A program made the position numbers and the translations under genes. A stretch of 33,787 nt of DNA from a virus (lineage: Duplodnaviria; Heunggongvirae; Uroviricota; Caudoviricetes): positions 1 to 33,787 of IMG/VR virus record IMGVR_UViG_2724679074_000004; one strand, written 5' to 3'. Positions 23,865 through 31,020 of the stretch are shown here, one piece after another. The notes beneath the pieces are model-generated. The model ran no database searches. It saw only the letters and a program-made list of their open reading frames with translations, and was not told the origin of the DNA. How positions within the stretch are numbered: the first letter of the stretch is position 1; the number at the start of each line of letters is the position of its first letter.

Positions 23865-24710
23865 TCACTCCTGCGCCCATGAAGGCATTTCAGTTTGCCC
23901 GTAATCTTTGGCGGCAAAGTTTTCCTGCATAGCTCGCTGCTGCGGCCTCGGTTGAGATTTCCCCTTTGGAGTCTTGGGTTCAAAAATCCCCTGCCAACCA
24001 CTGGCGATGCTCTGGTTTATAATTTCTTCAGGTGTATATCCCTTCTCCAGACTTCTGCTTAGAACGTTGATAGCCTGAGTGACACTTTGCTTAGACTTGA
24101 TCGACTTACCTATCTCCTTGCGATAGGTAACCCACGACAACCATGTTTCTGCTGATAACCAATCAGGCAACTCTGTTTCTAGCGGGTCGAACTTCTGAGA
24201 AACTTTTTTGGGGGATATAGGGGGTTTATTAATATTTTCTTTTGTCTTTAAAGAATGTCTTTTGTGTGTCTCTAACTTCGAGACATTGAGTGTCTCTAAT
24301 TTGGAGACATTTTTTGTCTCTAACTTCGAGACAAAGTTGCTAACTTGGAGACACTTGCTGAATTGCCACGCAGATACCTCCCTGTTTACACCGATTTTAT
24401 TTCCATCCATAAACAGGCAATTCATTGAAATCAGTTCTTTTTTAGCCTTGTTAACATTCTGCCTTGACAGTCCTGTTAACTGAGCAATTTGCTCATCGGC
24501 TATTCGATCTGTTTTCTTATTGAAGCCATATGTTTTCCGGACGTAGGCCAGCATAACTTTCAACTGGCGAGCGGTTAAATCGGCACTTGCGATAGCTTCC
24601 AGCAGCTCGTTAGCGAATCTGGTGTAACCATCATCGATATCAGCCACTCTTAGCTCCTGTTCGGCAAAGTTACCTCTGCCGAAGTTGAGTATTTTTGCTG
24701 TATTTGTCAT
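23865..24710 (-). CDS. O: Replication initiator, lambda O-like N-terminal domain; contains ori iterons
   Basis: N-terminus MTNTAKILNFGRGNFAEQELRVADIDDGYTRF.. matches lambda O; encoded repeats VSKLETKNVSKLETLNVSKLET reflect DNA iterons. Confidence 0.9.
   Translation of the reverse strand: MTNTAKILNFGRGNFAEQELRVADIDDGYTRFANELLEAIASADLTARQLKVMLAYVRKTYGFNKKTDRIADEQIAQLTGLSRQNVNKAKKELISMNCLFMDGNKIGVNREVSAWQFSKCLQVSNFVSKLETKNVSKLETLNVSKLETHKRHSLKTKENINKPPISPKKVSQKFDPLETELPDWLSAETWLSWVTYRKEIGKSIKSKQSVTQAINVLSRSLEKGYTPEEIINQSIASGWQGIFEPKTPKGKSQPRPQQRAMQENFAAKDYGQTEMPSWAQE
24263..24345. repeat. Replication origin iterons: four ~20-bp tandem units (tgtctctaacttcgagaca-like, each internally palindromic), flanked on the O-downstream side by an AT-rich tract (~24190-24260)
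   Basis: Read directly: tgtctctaacttcgagaca / gtgtctctaatttggagaca / ttgtctctaacttcgagaca / aagttgctaacttggagaca inside the O-like gene, as for lambda ori. Confidence 0.75.
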
Positions 24711-25033: not shown

Positions 25034-25094
25034 CATATGTAAGTATTTCCTTAACAAATAAGAAGTTATGCGCATCAACTTATGCGCGTTGTAT

Positions 25095-25138
25095 TCCCGC
25101 ATTTCGGCGGGAATGAGGACCATGACTGTTAAAGAGCG
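25095..25138 (-). promoter_or_regulatory. nutR: boxA (CGCTCTTTAA) and boxB hairpin (TCCCGC-CGAAAT-GCGGGA) between cro and cII
   Basis: Minus-strand sequence CGCTCTTTAACAGTCATGGTCCTCATTCCCGCCGAAATGCGGGAA; same boxB as the nutL copy upstream of N. Confidence 0.55.
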
Positions 25139-25370: not shown

Positions 25371-25406
25371 GAGCATACCTCTTGTGGTCATTACTTATAA
25401 CCAAAG

Positions 25407-25469
25407 ATAACTCAAGTTATAAAAAATAGCAATAACCTTTGTTATTTTACTTTGGATAACCGTAGTTAT
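25407..25469. promoter_or_regulatory. OR operator region: three 14-bp palindromes with ATAAC/GTTAT half-sites, centre spacing 24-25 bp, between cro and cI (PR/PRM region)
   Basis: ATAACTCAAGTTAT (25407-25420), ATAACCTTTGTTAT (25432-25445), ATAACCGTAGTTAT (25456-25469) read directly. Confidence 0.6.
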
Positions 25470-25481
25470 AGATTTGTGGGT

Positions 25482-26189
25482 ATGAAAACATTCGCAGAAA
25501 GACTAAATGCAGCCATGAGCTCAGCAGGGGTATCACAATCACAGCTTGCTGACATGGTTGGAATATCTCAGCCAGCCATACAGAAGATGTCGTCCGGTAA
25601 AACAAACGGATCTCGCAAGATGGTTGAATTAGCCAATGCTTTAAAAGTGCGCCCTGAATGGCTTAGTTCTGGTATTGGTGAAATGAGGGATGGTGCACAT
25701 GAAGAACCATCCAATTTCCGTGAGTCATCTTTAAAAGCTGTGGTATGGGAAGACATTAAAAGAAACGATGACGAGTTTGTTGCGTTGCCTCTTCTTAACG
25801 TTTCGCTTTCAGCTGGAAGCGGTAGCTGCGAGCTAGAGGAATCATCGGAGTTCTCTTTGGTTTTCAGAAAGCACTATCTGAAAAAGATGGGAGTATCTGA
25901 AAGATCAGCCAAGCTAGTTAGGGTTGTAGGGCAAAGCATGGAACCAACGCTTCACGATGGCGATGTTGTTGGTGTTAACACGCAAGATACCACCATCAGA
26001 GATGGTAAAACCTACGCTATTTGCCAGTCTGATTTGTTACGAGTAAAAACATTAATCGCCACCCCTACATCGGTGATAATCAGATCAATAAATCGCGAAG
26101 AGTACCCGGATGAAGTAATGGATAGAGATGAATTTCATGAAACCGTAAGGATTATTGGCAGAGTATTCTGGTCGTCTCATAGTTGGTAA
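25482..26189 (+). CDS. cI: CI-type prophage repressor (XRE HTH + S24 LexA-like autopeptidase domain)
   Basis: N-terminal HTH (SQSQLADMVGISQPAIQKMSSG), Ala-Gly cleavage motif (SLSAGSG), catalytic Ser in GQSMEPT and Lys in RVKTL; start taken at MKTFAERL (track uses an upstream TTG). Confidence 0.9.
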   Translation: MKTFAERLNAAMSSAGVSQSQLADMVGISQPAIQKMSSGKTNGSRKMVELANALKVRPEWLSSGIGEMRDGAHEEPSNFRESSLKAVVWEDIKRNDDEFVALPLLNVSLSAGSGSCELEESSEFSLVFRKHYLKKMGVSERSAKLVRVVGQSMEPTLHDGDVVGVNTQDTTIRDGKTYAICQSDLLRVKTLIATPTSVIIRSINREEYPDEVMDRDEFHETVRIIGRVFWSSHSW

Positions 26190-26560: not shown

Positions 26561-26680
26561 TGCCGTTCACCACCCAATCACCCATCATCATCATAGACAA
26601 GCATCAAGCCAAAGGTAACACCTTCACCCCGCACGCAAGCCCTCAAACACCAATCAATCAGCAACATTTACAAAAATAAA

Positions 26681-26764
26681 ATACCTTTGTTATCCATCAC
26701 TTATAACTTATTTACCACAAAATATAAATTAGGTTATTGACCACACCTATAACCTAAGTTATCT
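26681..26764 (+). promoter_or_regulatory. OL/PL region: operator-like ATAAC/GTTAT palindromes and a candidate PL promoter (-35 TTGACC, -10 TATCTT) directed toward N
   Basis: ATACCTTTGTTAT, ATAAATTAGGTTAT and ATAACCTAAGTTAT share half-sites with the OR operators; TTGACC-17bp-TATCTT read directly. Confidence 0.5.
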
Positions 26765-26810
26765 TTAAGCCATCAGCAGGACGCTGGTAGCCAAACGGAA
26801 CAGATTGGCA

Positions 26811-26851
26811 GGCTCTTTAGCATTGATGGGATTGTCCCGCCGAAATGCGGG
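26811..26851 (+). promoter_or_regulatory. nutL: boxA-like GGCTCTTTAG and boxB hairpin CCCGC-CGAAAT-GCGGG upstream of N
   Basis: Same boxB sequence as nutR; located between PL and the N start. Confidence 0.5.
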
Positions 26852-26959
26852 AACCAAAGAGTAGTTGGCTTTGGGGTGACGTGAAGTGCAGCTGCACGAC
26901 GGCAACCGGAAGATAAGCACCCGGCGCGTCACCGCCAAAGTCAATCATCGGAGGTCAAC

Positions 26960-27232
26960 ATGACAGTAGTCATTACATATCTGGCTGACGATAACGCCAG
27001 AAATCGCCGCAGAGCACGCAGACAGGCTCAACGTGAGCAGGCAATGCAAGAACAGCGACTGGCGCGAAAAATTGCGCTAAAGCTCTCTAGTTGCGTCAGA
27101 GCAGACAAAGCAGCATCACTCGGAAGCCTTCGCTGCAAGAAGGCAGAAGAATGCAGTGGAAGTATTTGCCTGCCAAACGTAGCTCTTTACGCGGCAGGCT
27201 ACCGGAAATCAAAACAACTGACAGCCAGGTAA
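26960..27232 (+). CDS. N: N-type transcription antiterminator (P22 gene 24-like)
   Basis: Arginine-rich motif NARNRRRARRQAQREQ at N-terminus; C-terminus LPNVALYAAGYRKSKQLTAR matches remembered P22 gp24; preceded by nutL. Confidence 0.8.
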   Translation: MTVVITYLADDNARNRRRARRQAQREQAMQEQRLARKIALKLSSCVRADKAASLGSLRCKKAEECSGSICLPNVALYAAGYRKSKQLTAR

Positions 27233-27235
27233 GTG

Positions 27236-27460
27236 ATGAATCAGACATACATTCCATCATGCTTGAGAAATCTGCCAAAGCAGAAAGCAAAGCCCCGCAA
27301 GCAAGCCATAAAGGACGCTAAGGCAGAGGTTATTGATCAAGCAATACAATTGCTCAGGGAGGAGTTAAGAAGTGGCAAGCTCGAAGGAATGATGATGCCC
27401 TATCAGCGCGGATATCTATCGGCGATTAGTAAGTTGGAAGTATTGAAGAGTGAATTATGA
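27236..27460 (+). CDS. Hypothetical small basic protein (74 aa) immediately downstream of N
   Basis: ORF starting 1 codon after N stop; no recognizable family. Confidence 0.45.
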   Translation: MNQTYIPSCLRNLPKQKAKPRKQAIKDAKAEVIDQAIQLLREELRSGKLEGMMMPYQRGYLSAISKLEVLKSEL

Positions 27461-27493
27461 ACTATCTGGAATTTCCGGATGGTTCATTGTTTT

Positions 27494-27515
27494 GGCAGCA
27501 AACCACTTATTTGAG
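27494..27515 (+). repeat. 22-bp direct repeat copy 1 (GGCAGCAAACCACTTATTTGAG)
   Basis: Identical copy at 27617-27638; each sits ~10 nt upstream of an ATG. Confidence 0.75.
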
Positions 27516-27616
27516 GTGATATATGGAAGAACAAGCAAACAAGATTCTCGTAGAGCTACCGCAAGCCACGCAGTGAAATGGGTGTTACTTGTGTTGGTCG
27601 CCAGAAAATGAAATTA

Positions 27617-27638
27617 GGCAGCAAACCACTTATTTGAG
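27617..27638 (+). repeat. 22-bp direct repeat copy 2 (GGCAGCAAACCACTTATTTGAG), immediately upstream of the RBS/start of the 207-aa gene
   Basis: Identical to 27494-27515. Confidence 0.75.
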
Positions 27639-27648
27639 AGGAATTAAT

Positions 27649-28272
27649 ATGTCATCAATCCGCTTAACTACGAGAATGAAAGAGGAAATCGCTCGTAACG
27701 CTTTAATTAAGTCTGGGGTTTTCACTGAACTTGAAGAAGTAACAAAGTTAAAGAACCAGCTTGCACTTGACGCCAGAGTTATTGCGTTTGGCGGTAAAAA
27801 GAAAACTGAGGAAGTGGATCGGTTATCATCCAAGTTAGCAGCTATAAGTGAAGAACTTGAGAAGATGGGATGTTCATTTTACTCATGCGATGTTCGTTCT
27901 ACTTCGATTTATCTGACTGTATCTGGAAGAAGGGTTGGCTGGCATTCATATGGGAAAGACGGCAACGGCGAAGATATATTGCTCCCTACTCCGACAAAAG
28001 ATAAATGCATGTTTGACGCAGAGCACGAAATAACAAAAAGGTTTGATGAAATCTGCTCATTACAACAAAAACTTGAAGCAAAGAAAAAGGATATCGAATC
28101 AAATGTATGGGCTGCTTTAAACTCAGTCACAACAGTTAAGCGACTTATTGAGGTTTGGCCTGAAAGCAAAGAGTTGCTACCAAAAGAAGCAGATAAAGCA
28201 AGTACAGCACTTCCTGCTTTACGGGTAGAAGATTTGAATAAGATGATTGGACTTCCTTCCGAGGCCGCATAG
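27649..28272 (+). CDS. Hypothetical protein (207 aa), unknown function, early-left accessory region
   Basis: Start at MSSIRLTTRMKEEIARN with GAGGAA RBS; soluble, coiled-coil-rich; no family recognized. Confidence 0.55.
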   Translation: MSSIRLTTRMKEEIARNALIKSGVFTELEEVTKLKNQLALDARVIAFGGKKKTEEVDRLSSKLAAISEELEKMGCSFYSCDVRSTSIYLTVSGRRVGWHSYGKDGNGEDILLPTPTKDKCMFDAEHEITKRFDEICSLQQKLEAKKKDIESNVWAALNSVTTVKRLIEVWPESKELLPKEADKASTALPALRVEDLNKMIGLPSEAA

Positions 28273-28309
28273 TCGGCCTTTATTTTTGGCATAAACAACA
28301 GAGGCTAAC

Positions 28310-28606
28310 ATGGAATTTAAAGGTACTGAAGGTAAGTGGGAAATAATGATGGATGGCGATGAGATTAAAATCATCCAGGCAGACTCACTTGAAAATGGCA
28401 CAGGCTGGCGTTCGTATATTGCAATCTGTGAGGAAGTTCAATGCATTGAAGATGCCAATCTAATAGCGGCAGCACCTGACCTTCTCGAAGCACTTCAGTT
28501 ATTACTTAAGCAAACCAAAAATAGAACAACGACAACATATCCAGAATGGTATGGAGCTGTTAATAAAGGTCTTGCAGCAATCAGAAAAGCTCTTGGGGAA
28601 GAATGA
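28310..28606 (+). CDS. Hypothetical protein (98 aa), unknown function
   Basis: ORF 38 bp downstream of the 207-aa gene; AT-rich; no family recognized. Confidence 0.5.
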   Translation: MEFKGTEGKWEIMMDGDEIKIIQADSLENGTGWRSYIAICEEVQCIEDANLIAAAPDLLEALQLLLKQTKNRTTTTYPEWYGAVNKGLAAIRKALGEE

Positions 28607-28762: not shown

Positions 28763-28896
28763 AAGCGCCTATAGCAGATTTACGAGTCTGCTATGTGAGC
28801 AATGTCGCTCGTAACTAAACAGGAGCCGACTTGTTCTGATTATTGGAAATCTTCTTTGCCCTCCGATGTGAGGGCAATTTTTTTGATGGAGGATAT

Positions 28897-29865
28897 ATGA
28901 GTGAAGTAACAGATTTAGTTGTTATTGAAAAAGCAAATGCAATGACTGTATTTCAGTCTGCCGACCAGATTGAAGAAATCCTTCAAAAGGTTGAACGTGA
29001 AGTTATGTCCTTTGTGCCTGATATCACAACGGCAAAGGGCAGAAAGGAGATCGCTTCTCTGGCGTATAAAGTTGCGCAGACGAAAACATATCTCGATGGT
29101 CTTGGCAAAGACCTTGTTGCTGAACTGAAGGAAATTCCAAAGCTAATTGATGCCAACCGCAAGACAGTGCGTGATCGCCTTGATGAGCTGAAAGCCAAGG
29201 CGCGCCAGCCTCTTACTGATTATGAGGAAGAACAGGCGCGGATTAAAGCCGAAGAAGAAGCTAAGGCAGCAGCTGAAGCTCTCGCAAAGCAAATTGAGTC
29301 TGACCATGAAATAGCGATTTTGATGGATCGCGAATTTGACCGCCAAAGAGAAGAGGCAAGACTCAAAGCGGAGCAGGAAAAGCGAGAGCATGAAGAACGC
29401 TTAAAAAGAGAAGCTGAAGAGAAAGCCAGAGCAGAAGCCGAAGCAAAGGCAAAAGCCGAAATTGAAGCAGCAGCAAGGCGAGAAGCAGAAGCTAAGGCCG
29501 CAGCGGAACGTGCAGAGCGTGAACGCATTGAAGCCGAGCAACGAGCACAGCGCAAAGCAAAAGAGGCAGCAGAACGAGCTGAAAGAGAAAAGCAGGCGGC
29601 AATTGAAGCAGAACGCCGAAAAGCACAGGAGGAGGCTGAACGAATCCGGCGCGAAGCTGAAGCAAAAGAGCAAGCCAGAATAGCAGAAGAAAAAAGAATC
29701 AAGGACGAAGAAGAGCGTAGAGCAAAGGATAAAGCTCACCGGAAAGAAGTAAATAACAAAATACTTGCTGACCTTATCAAGGTTGGTGCATCAGAAGATG
29801 TTGCTAAAAATATCATAACAGCCATCGTAAAAGGCGAAGTATTCGCAACAAAAATAACCTACTAA
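28897..29865 (+). CDS. Hypothetical protein with N-terminal globular domain and long E/A/K/R-rich low-complexity helical (TolA domain II-like) region
   Basis: 322 aa from MSEVTDLVVIEK (GGAGGA RBS); ~170 aa of AEAKAKAE/REAEAK repeats; C-terminal ~50 aa non-repetitive. Confidence 0.6.
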   Translation: MSEVTDLVVIEKANAMTVFQSADQIEEILQKVEREVMSFVPDITTAKGRKEIASLAYKVAQTKTYLDGLGKDLVAELKEIPKLIDANRKTVRDRLDELKAKARQPLTDYEEEQARIKAEEEAKAAAEALAKQIESDHEIAILMDREFDRQREEARLKAEQEKREHEERLKREAEEKARAEAEAKAKAEIEAAARREAEAKAAAERAERERIEAEQRAQRKAKEAAERAEREKQAAIEAERRKAQEEAERIRREAEAKEQARIAEEKRIKDEEERRAKDKAHRKEVNNKILADLIKVGASEDVAKNIITAIVKGEVFATKITY

Positions 29866-30233: not shown

Positions 30234-30404
30234 ATGTCACTTGCAACCACAGTGAAGGAGAGCAAGTTACAGAGACGCATGTACACGCAGAAAGCTCTCT
30301 GGTATCGCCATAATGGTGACCGCGAAGGAATGCGGGTATGCCTTAATTTGTCCCGAGTCGAAGTATTAAATCAGCGTTATTTCCTTGGGCCGTGTCCATT
30401 CTGA
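30234..30404 (+). CDS. Possible small protein (56 aa) just upstream of erf
   Basis: Strong RBS GAAGGAG 6 nt upstream of ATG; MSLATTVKESKLQRRMYTQKALWYRHNGDREGMRVCLNLSRVEVLNQRYFLGPCPF; overlaps an alternative 57-codon frame starting at 30155. Confidence 0.3.
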   Translation: MSLATTVKESKLQRRMYTQKALWYRHNGDREGMRVCLNLSRVEVLNQRYFLGPCPF

Positions 30405-30414
30405 GAACAAACAT

Positions 30415-31020
30415 ATGAGCAAAGAATTTTACGCAAGACTGGCAGCCATTCAGGAGAATCTGAACGCGCCAAAGAATCAGTACAACTCATTCGGTAAATA
30501 TAAATACAGAAGCTGCGAAGACATTCTTGAAGGCGTTAAGCCGTTACTGAATGGCCTGTTTTTATCAATCAGCGATGAAGTTGTGTTGATTGGTGATCGG
30601 TATTACGTGAAAGCAACAGCAACTATTACTGATGGCGAAAACAGTCATACAGCAACCGCCCTTGCACGAGAGGAAGAAAGCAAGAAAGGAATGGATTCTG
30701 CACAAGTTACTGGAGCTACAAGCTCTTATGCACGCAAGTATTGCCTCAATGGTTTGTTCGGCATTGATGATGCGAAAGATGCAGATACCGACGAGCATAA
30801 ACATCAGCAGAACGCAGCAGCAAAGCAATCAAAACCATCACCTACATCTGAACAGGTTCTAAAAGCATTCACTGACGCAGCATTGCAGAAAAACACCGTA
30901 GAAGAGCTTAAACAGGCGTTCGCCAAAGCGTGGAAGATGCTCGAAGGCACACCGGAGCAGCACAAAGCGCAGGACGTTTACAACATCAGACGAGACGAAT
31001 TAGAAGGAGCGGCTGCTTAA
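30415..31020 (+). CDS. erf: Erf-family single-strand annealing recombinase
   Basis: MSKEFYARLA.IQE.LNAPKNQYNSFGKYKYRSCEDILEGVKPLL.GLFLSISDE.VLIGDRYYVKATATITDGENSH.. matches remembered P22 Erf. Confidence 0.9.
   Translation: MSKEFYARLAAIQENLNAPKNQYNSFGKYKYRSCEDILEGVKPLLNGLFLSISDEVVLIGDRYYVKATATITDGENSHTATALAREEESKKGMDSAQVTGATSSYARKYCLNGLFGIDDAKDADTDEHKHQQNAAAKQSKPSPTSEQVLKAFTDAALQKNTVEELKQAFAKAWKMLEGTPEQHKAQDVYNIRRDELEGAAA

Follow-up and report, generated by a model that had tools for sequence, protein, structure and literature searches.

A perfect 22-bp repeat in the early-left operon of a P22-like Escherichia coli phage or prophage: probable relics of an N gene end at a mosaic joint

Introduction

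The DNA studied here, a stretch of 33,787 nucleotides referred to in its full length as the window, belongs to a P22-like E. coli phage or prophage whose structural genes are approximately 96% identical to those of IME10 and APC_JM3.2. Its early-left (pL-type) operon, which is located on the plus strand, contains a perfect 22-bp direct repeat placed in front of two consecutive start codons. The locus raises the question of whether a sequence duplicated so close to translation starts serves the expression of the genes behind it or was left there by recombination. Both answers had been considered in the original prediction, which proposed either a shared regulatory site, e.g., a target of a protein or sRNA or a translational operator, or a recombination scar at the boundary of a moron insertion.

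Mosaic "novel joints" are reported for the lambdoid phages HK97 and HK022 (Juhala et al. 2000, as cited in PMC2327257), and short conserved flanking sequences have been proposed for the exchange of lambdoid modules (Clark et al. 2001, on HK620, as cited in PMC2327257). Phage single-strand-annealing recombinases have been experimentally linked to lambdoid mosaicism and are efficient on short or diverged homologies, while traces of flanking homology were found in about half of the lambdoid mosaics (PMC2327257, PMC3945230). For Red-beta, a homology of about 30 bp is sufficient (PMC3945230).

Results

Position of the repeat and its neighborhood

The 22-mer GGCAGCAAACCACTTATTTGAG occurs exactly twice in the window, both times on the plus strand, at positions 27494-27515 (copy 1) and 27617-27638 (copy 2). 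The predicted perfect direct repeat with a start-to-start distance of 123 bp was thus confirmed. No further copies with up to three mismatches were detected in the window, and 100 dinucleotide-preserving shuffles did not yield any match (chance expectation 0). A repeat search of the window extended the identity to 25 nt, of which 24 are shared by the copies (TT[T/A]GGCAGC…). The two reading frames said to follow the copies were also found, a mini-ORF of 17 codons at 27523-27576 (plus strand; MEEQANKILVELPQATQ and a stop codon) and a gene for 207 amino acids at 27649-28272. The reported distance of about 10 nt to the ATG holds for copy 2, which ends 10 nt before ATG 27649, and not for copy 1, which ends 7 nt before ATG 27523. 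Copy 1 is now out of any N frame and provides the 5′ part of the Shine-Dalgarno region GAGGTGA; copy 2 resides directly upstream of the Shine-Dalgarno sequence GAGAGGA of the 207-aa gene.

Along the early-left region, a gene for an HTH and S24 repressor (25452-26189) comes first. It is followed by a 98-aa ORF with a terminator, which lies between the repressor gene and a boxB-like 19-mer at 26835-26853, and by a complete N antiterminator gene of a type here called N′ (26960-27232, plus strand), whose product matched the Pfam family PF25694 (N_peptide, E=2e-16) up to the end of the profile. It contains the arginine-rich motif NARNRRRARRQAQ and ends with …YRKSKQLTAR; its equivalent in E. coli PD7 (L001) is annotated as "transcriptional antitermination N peptide". 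In the lineage of the window, N′ is followed by a 74-aa gene (27236-27460, plus strand), the product of which is listed in L001 and L002 as the hypothetical protein WP_001077327 and gave no Pfam or NCBIfam match. The stop codon of this gene is overlapped by a terminator-like hairpin (27457-27493, plus strand) that was detected by a terminator scan and forms the left boundary of copy 1. The hairpin consists of a 14-bp stem (27457-27487) and a subsequent UUGUUUU, and its RNA fold of -21 kcal/mol (z=-5.45) was not equaled by any of 200 shuffles. This terminator-like structure sits inside an N-antiterminated operon and is conserved in 79 IMG/VR contigs.

The 207-aa gene behind copy 2 (plus strand) belongs to the Nmad5 family (Pfam PF18757, E=7e-71). 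Further along the same operon, and mentioned here as context only, Abc2 and the single-strand-annealing recombinase Erf are encoded (erf at 30385-31020, plus strand; Pfam PF04404 ERF, E=1.9e-44); Erf is a plausible enzyme for exchanges at short homologies. Ten flanking and alternative proteins gave no NCBIfam match, and Pfam assignments among them were confined to N′, Nmad5, the N36 peptide of HK542 N and DUF7446. A promoter scan of the region 26766-28500 revealed no sigma-70-like promoter.

Several other repeated elements were noticed in the window. A perfect inverted pair of 19 nt (TCCCGCCGAAATGCGGGAA), each member with a GC-stem hairpin, flanks the repressor gene at 25094-25112 (minus strand) and 26835-26853 (plus strand), on the one side upstream of N; very likely, the two elements represent boxB of nutR and of nutL. 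The 22-mer itself was rejected as a nut site: it has no hairpin, and the boxB-like copies lie elsewhere. Related repeats of 22-27 nt and small palindromes (ATACCTYTKT…, TATAACCTAAGTTATCTTT) on either side of the repressor gene, at 25375-25445 and 26672-26766, probably represent the OR and OL operator sets. At 24262-24356, the gene of replication protein O (23865-24710, minus strand; PF04492) contains three to four 24-bp tandem iterons (TTGTGTGTCTCTAACTTCGAGACA), which by analogy to lambda probably constitute the replication origin. A 340-aa ORF at 28843-29865 harbors long internal repeats rich in Glu, Ala and Lys with a periodicity of 18-66 nt; its homologue in APC_JM3.2 is annotated as TolA-like, and no Pfam match was obtained.

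Relation of the 22-mer to N genes

In phage HK542, the annotated N coding sequence (L125, 1255-1581) has its end within the 22-mer and encodes what is essentially lambda N (89.8% identical), starting with MDAQTRRRERRAEKQAQW… and ending with …GVTCVGRQKMKLGSKPLI before the stop codon. Read in the N frame, the 22-mer is GGC AGC AAA CCA CTT ATT TGA G, i.e., Gly-Ser-Lys-Pro-Leu-Ile-stop and a final G, which is the first base of the Shine-Dalgarno sequence of the next gene. Besides HK542, the 22-mer has this role of an N 3′ end in about 68 IMG/VR loci.

To follow the sequence in relatives, 119 IMG/VR contigs containing the exact 22-mer were collected. In roughly one third of these loci, an open N frame of 96-163 codons ends in the 22-mer; the frames are of two types, a lambda-like one with …NLQRIERKNQRTWYSKPRSEM… and a second one with …GSLRCKKAEEVERKQNRIYYRKPRSEM…. 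The remaining loci contain nested, non-coding remnants of the N tail, comprising approximately 27-31, 16 or 6 codons. A relic of the longest class is found in mEp235, behind N, Nun and a terminator; PhiR12 has the 16-codon relic behind an N′ gene ending with …YRKSKQLTAR; and the relic of only 22 nt directly follows the hairpin of the 74-aa gene. In mEp235 (L004, 810-1582), N and Nun are thus succeeded by a terminator hairpin, a non-coding N-tail relic of 31 codons and Nmad5.

The window has remnants of two lengths. Copy 1 preserves no more than 22 nt of the N gene 3′ end (GSKPLI, stop and G); copy 2 comprises the last six codons, the stop codon and one additional nucleotide of a longer relic. 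This longer relic spans 84 nt (27554-27637, plus strand) and corresponds to the 3′ end of a lambda-like, so-called GSL-type N gene, encoding SYRKPRSEMGVTCVGRQKMKLGSKPLI and a stop, i.e., the 27 terminal codons of N. The fragment is preceded by a stop codon at 27551-27553, so that no intact N gene exists there; in many loci, an intact N frame (96-163 codons) closes with the same tail, as does the annotated N of HK542. The sole PDB match of the relic was to residues 86-110 of chain N in 6GOV (E=0.006), the C-terminal end of lambda N. Lambda and the HK542 type share this peptide tail (…GITCSGRQKIKGKSIPLI and …GVTCVGRQKMKLGSKPLI, respectively, each before a stop). Lambda N ends with GKSIPLI, but its DNA has diverged (GGAAAATCGATTCCTCTTATCTAG) and no gene start follows. 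As the window possesses a complete, functional N gene of another type, both of its 22-mer copies are non-coding relics, which is a further difference from lambda. Judged from these comparisons, the 22-mer represents the 3′ terminus of a lambda-type N antiterminator gene and not a dedicated element.

The N genes are themselves mosaic. Compared to L014, L026 and L027, the window N (26960-27232) shares …GSLRCKKAEE with the GSL type and differs in its C-terminal tail, which is …CSGSICLPNVALYAAGYRKSKQLTAR instead of …VERKQNRIYYRKPRSEMGVTCVGRQKMKLGSKPLI. The two alternative tails on the same antiterminator body may reflect two modes of contact to RNA polymerase.

The variation of the 22-mer was counted in loci ascertained by their left flank and not by the 22-mer itself. 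Behind the hairpin it was present in 73 of 83 IMG/VR loci (54 exact, 19 with one or two mismatches), and in 10 of the 83 a mosaic breakpoint lay inside it. In loci with an intact N frame, the sequence behind the N-tail 25-mer was exact in 56 cases, variant in eight and had another ending in four. Six of the eight variants in intact N are synonymous, while the variants in the hairpin relic include G20T, which destroys the former stop codon, and positions changing amino acids. This pattern is suggestive of a constraint on the protein in intact N and of relaxation in the stub; the comparison of relic and coding constraint gave p=0.055 (Fisher) for loci that are not phylogenetically independent. 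The exact 22-mer was found in 65-82% of the loci, whereas 41-64% would be expected from a per-base identity of 96-98%. Conservation is hence close to or somewhat above the naive expectation, and a modest constraint by ribosome binding is possible.

The segment between the copies

The DNA between the copies is composed of pieces of two genes. Positions 27516-27555 are identical to the start of intact membrane-protein-like genes of 121-149 aa (MEEQANKILVELLQKASNG…) in L032, L093, L100 and L101. In L032, the left context is identical to that of the window, and the hairpin and the 22-mer are followed by the intact 149-aa gene. The window retained a 5′ fragment of this gene (27516-27555, plus strand) consisting of the rest of the Shine-Dalgarno region, ATG 27523 and approximately 11 codons. 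Consequently the mini-ORF is chimeric: its codons 1-11 originate from the 149-aa gene, and codons 12-17 run through the N tail outside the N frame up to a stop.

The two pieces meet in a crossover zone at 27555-27564 (plus strand), where nucleotide comparison disclosed the microhomology ACTAC(T/C)GCAA, common in 10 of 11 nt to the 149-aa gene (…GAACTACTGCAAAAAGCC…) and the GSL-type N gene (…TTACTACCGCAAGCCACG…). The BLAST homology to mEp235, HK542 and others starts at the same place, at window positions 27556-27557 (query 327-328). Base 27555 is G in all four sequences bearing the joint and A in both presumed parents, which demands a later point change or a parent that was not sampled.

The segment of 123 bp contains neither an intact gene nor a promoter-like site. 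The predicted boundary of a moron insertion is therefore, strictly taken, not what is found here, as the segment is made up of two gene fragments. A moron with its own promoter was likewise rejected, there being no sigma-70-like site and no ORF other than the chimeric one of 17 codons. Morons are autonomous units of accessory genes that sit between phage genes, as a rule with a promoter and a terminator of their own. Similar to morons, the genes following the 22-mer are small, variable and accessory, they belong to the early operon, and some possess terminator-like hairpins.

The reading frames of the region 27236-27651 abut each other. A 20-codon ORF (27457-27519) begins with an ATG that overlaps the stop codon of the 74-aa gene; it is followed after 3 nt by the mini-ORF, after 1 nt by a 19-codon ORF in the N tail (27578-27637) and after 11 nt by Nmad5. 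This arrangement is probably incidental, though it would permit coupling by termination and reinitiation.

Occurrence in related phages and prophages

Roughly 1,430 E. coli genomes and 267 phages carry the element. Prophages in E. coli PD7 (L001) and about ten other complete E. coli genomes have only one 22-mer between the 74-aa gene with its hairpin and Nmad5, and the window exceeds them in length by exactly 123 bp. In other relatives, the hairpin and the 22-mer precede a different gene, e.g., an 83-aa gene in L003 and APC_JM3.2. The double arrangement of the window was recovered in one ETEC isolate (NZ_LR883012, 100% identity over 158 bp). Irrespective of its flanks, the joint was found in one piece in two of 5,426 complete E. 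coli genomes and in two IMG/VR contigs, and neither in deposited phages nor in GTDB species representatives.

These occurrences represent four flanking contexts (window/L002, L225, L127 and L128). It follows that the joint is older than the arrangement in the window and has itself been moved around. Such a distribution is compatible with a scar flanked by recombinogenic sequence and would equally be expected of a weakly useful element. In ABWA45 (L225, 1176-1518), the joint is followed by a variant N tail (…GRQKQRGKSIPAYYD and stop), a 45-aa Cys-rich gene, the 22-mer with one mismatch and a DUF7446 gene. L208 is a third, independent case of a double copy, in which a 64-aa gene lies between two 22-mers and an 83-aa gene follows. 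Altogether, two copies were present in 3 of 225 loci (ca. 1%).

Exchange of modules at the 22-mer

The suggested check of a link between the 22-mer and mosaic junctions in related genomes was positive: in 225 loci, which contain the sequence with up to two mismatches, it borders reassorted modules. On its left side, four main contexts (an intact N gene, a relic of approximately 27-31 codons with 23-63 open codons, the 16-codon relic and the hairpin stub) and a few rarer ones were found. On its right side, there are at least 12 unrelated gene families, among them a 28-aa acidic peptide, Nmad5, a 156-aa and an 83-aa protein, the 149-aa membrane protein, a 107-aa protein, DUF7446 (80 aa), a 62-aa and a 52-aa protein, and most combinations of left and right modules were seen. 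The commonest gene behind the 22-mer in the IMG/VR loci (e.g., L007) encodes the extremely acidic 28-aa peptide MEEEFEEFEEHPQDVMEQYQDYPYDYDY, to which no family is assigned.

Right-hand breakpoints lie 0, 10 or 13 nt past the 22-mer, and several unrelated downstream genes keep the shared sequence through ATGGAA. By spanning the N stop codon and the beginning of the next Shine-Dalgarno sequence, the 22-mer occupies a gene boundary at which recombinants keep intact genes. The reassorted combinations, from which the exchange itself is deduced, characterize the 22-mer as a heavily used mosaic junction, and the stretch of N stop codon and ribosome-binding region appears to be among the most heavily used exchange points of the early-left operon. 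In the searchable literature, we found no description of this N-tail junction and nothing specific on Nmad5 in prophages.

The locus resembles known lambdoid mosaic joints in its near-identical short boundary stretch between unrelated flanking genes, in the reassortment of left and right modules, in the gene fragments present at joints and in the single-strand-annealing recombinase encoded by the phage. It differs from them in that the shared stretch is specifically the coding end of N, that relics are graded (84, 52 and 22 nt) and that, in rare genomes, the stretch occurs twice in tandem.

Discussion

From the identity of the segments, the joint and the distribution in relatives, we infer a sequence of events and a recombination pathway according to which the repeat consists of two nested relics of one N gene end, left by the shuffling of modules between related phages. 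We are confident of this reading, which agrees with the predicted recombination scar: the 22-mer is an N 3′ end, both copies are relics situated at mosaic joints, and the close relatives with the same flanks have one copy and lack exactly 123 bp. In an ancestral phage, an N gene with the …GSKPLI tail would have resided directly before a variable accessory gene, the N tail and the ribosome-binding stretch forming the common border between the N module and the highly variable accessory gene in lambdoid phages. Replacement of this N module by N′ and the 74-aa gene with its hairpin may have left the 22-nt stub, i.e., copy 1, which would have kept serving as the upstream half of the ribosome-binding region of the next gene. 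Later, an unequal crossover at ACTAC(T/C)GCAA probably joined two collinear genomes, one with the stub followed by the 149-aa membrane gene, the other with an intact GSL-type N gene followed by Nmad5. The crossover point would correspond to codon 12 or so of the membrane gene and codon -27 of N, and in its product, the stub and 40 nt from the membrane gene would precede the terminal 84 nt of N, which include copy 2, and Nmad5. Recombination between copy 1 and copy 2 could delete the 123 bp and thereby give the common single-copy form. Any activity of the copies would be expected to be incidental, as the upstream half of a ribosome-binding region.

We consider it very unlikely that the 22-mer is a shared cis-regulatory site, an operator or a target of a protein or sRNA, by which the two starts are co-regulated. 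Both copies end at 7-10 nt from the following ATG and contain the first Shine-Dalgarno bases, and the sequence is well conserved across many phages, as such a site might be. However, it codes for the end of N in about one third of the relatives, it varies, and in the hairpin context ten breakpoints even fall within it. Close relatives with the same genes lack one of the copies, the double arrangement is restricted to the 1% of loci mentioned above, and the first "regulated gene" is a chimeric fragment of 17 codons. Folds around copy 1 and copy 2 were no better than those of shuffled sequences (z=-0.47 and +1.39). When the entire 231-nt region, or each copy together with its start codon, was folded, the upstream hairpin was the only significant structure, and a Rfam scan of the whole window at the gathering threshold gave no match. 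The absence or variation of the repeat in close relatives carrying the same genes speaks against the regulatory reading on the terms on which it had been put forward. It is extremely improbable, too, that a 19-aa peptide (MGVTCVGRQKMKLGSKPLI, 27578-27637) is made from the N-tail relic, imitates the N end contacting RNA polymerase and modulates antitermination, the small ORFs acting as a chain of translational coupling into Nmad5. Lambda N contacts RNA polymerase by its C-terminus, which is present in the 6GOV structure; the relic has kept an in-frame ATG, and the gaps between the abutting ORFs, counted from the 74-aa gene up to Nmad5, are -4, +3, +1 and +11 nt. Against this, there is no Shine-Dalgarno sequence before ATG 27578, the length of the relic varies among phages (those of 16 and 6 codons are devoid of Met), single-copy relatives lack the relic entirely, and the adjacency of the ORFs follows automatically from the parental sequences. 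Local duplication of a 123-bp unit, in tandem or by replication slippage, would account for the fixed period of 123 bp, but can practically be dismissed, because the 101 nt between the copies are not repeated: only 22-25 nt are duplicated, and the interval shows no similarity to the sequence after copy 2 and instead matches two different foreign genes.

According to a further explanation, selection maintains the stretch of N tail and Shine-Dalgarno sequence (22-mer alone, or 35 nt if GTGAKATATGGAA is included) as an integrase-free cassette junction of ca. 22-35 nt, by which accessory genes are exchanged and occasionally stacked immediately behind N by homologous recombination. Its users would be phage single-strand-annealing recombinases (Erf, Red-beta, Rad52-like), and the double copy would be a by-product. 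This is rather unlikely in our opinion, even though a number of observations fit it. The many gene families behind the same sequence are combined with four left contexts, three independent double-copy stackings with different genes in between exist (L002/window, L208 and L225), several unrelated genes share the sequence through ATGGAA, and a bare relic was retained after three or more different left modules. The short flanking sequences proposed by Clark et al. (2001, as cited in PMC2327257) and the small homology requirement of Red-beta (PMC3945230) are also in line with it. Yet the conservation is sufficiently explained by the function of N and recent common ancestry, as the modules are 95-99% identical, and the joint of the window was made elsewhere, by microhomology and not at the 22-mer. 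Moreover, selection for evolvability is hard to demonstrate, and sampling by the exact 22-mer is biased in its ascertainment. If true, the idea would explain why a bare 22-nt stub outlasts the N gene that was replaced.

Under the preferred reading, two nested N relics at a mosaic joint, neither the ORF of 17 codons nor that of 19 codons in the N tail should be annotated as a gene, and the repeat should not be taken for an operator. The repeat is an instance of the well-known mosaicism of lambdoid phages, resolved to the nucleotide, and provides a clean example of how such a joint originates, in which both parental sequences, the microhomology and graded relics of a gene end are visible. If the N stop codon and ribosome-binding stretch is preferentially recombined, it would offer a substrate for testing homologous against illegitimate models of mosaicism.
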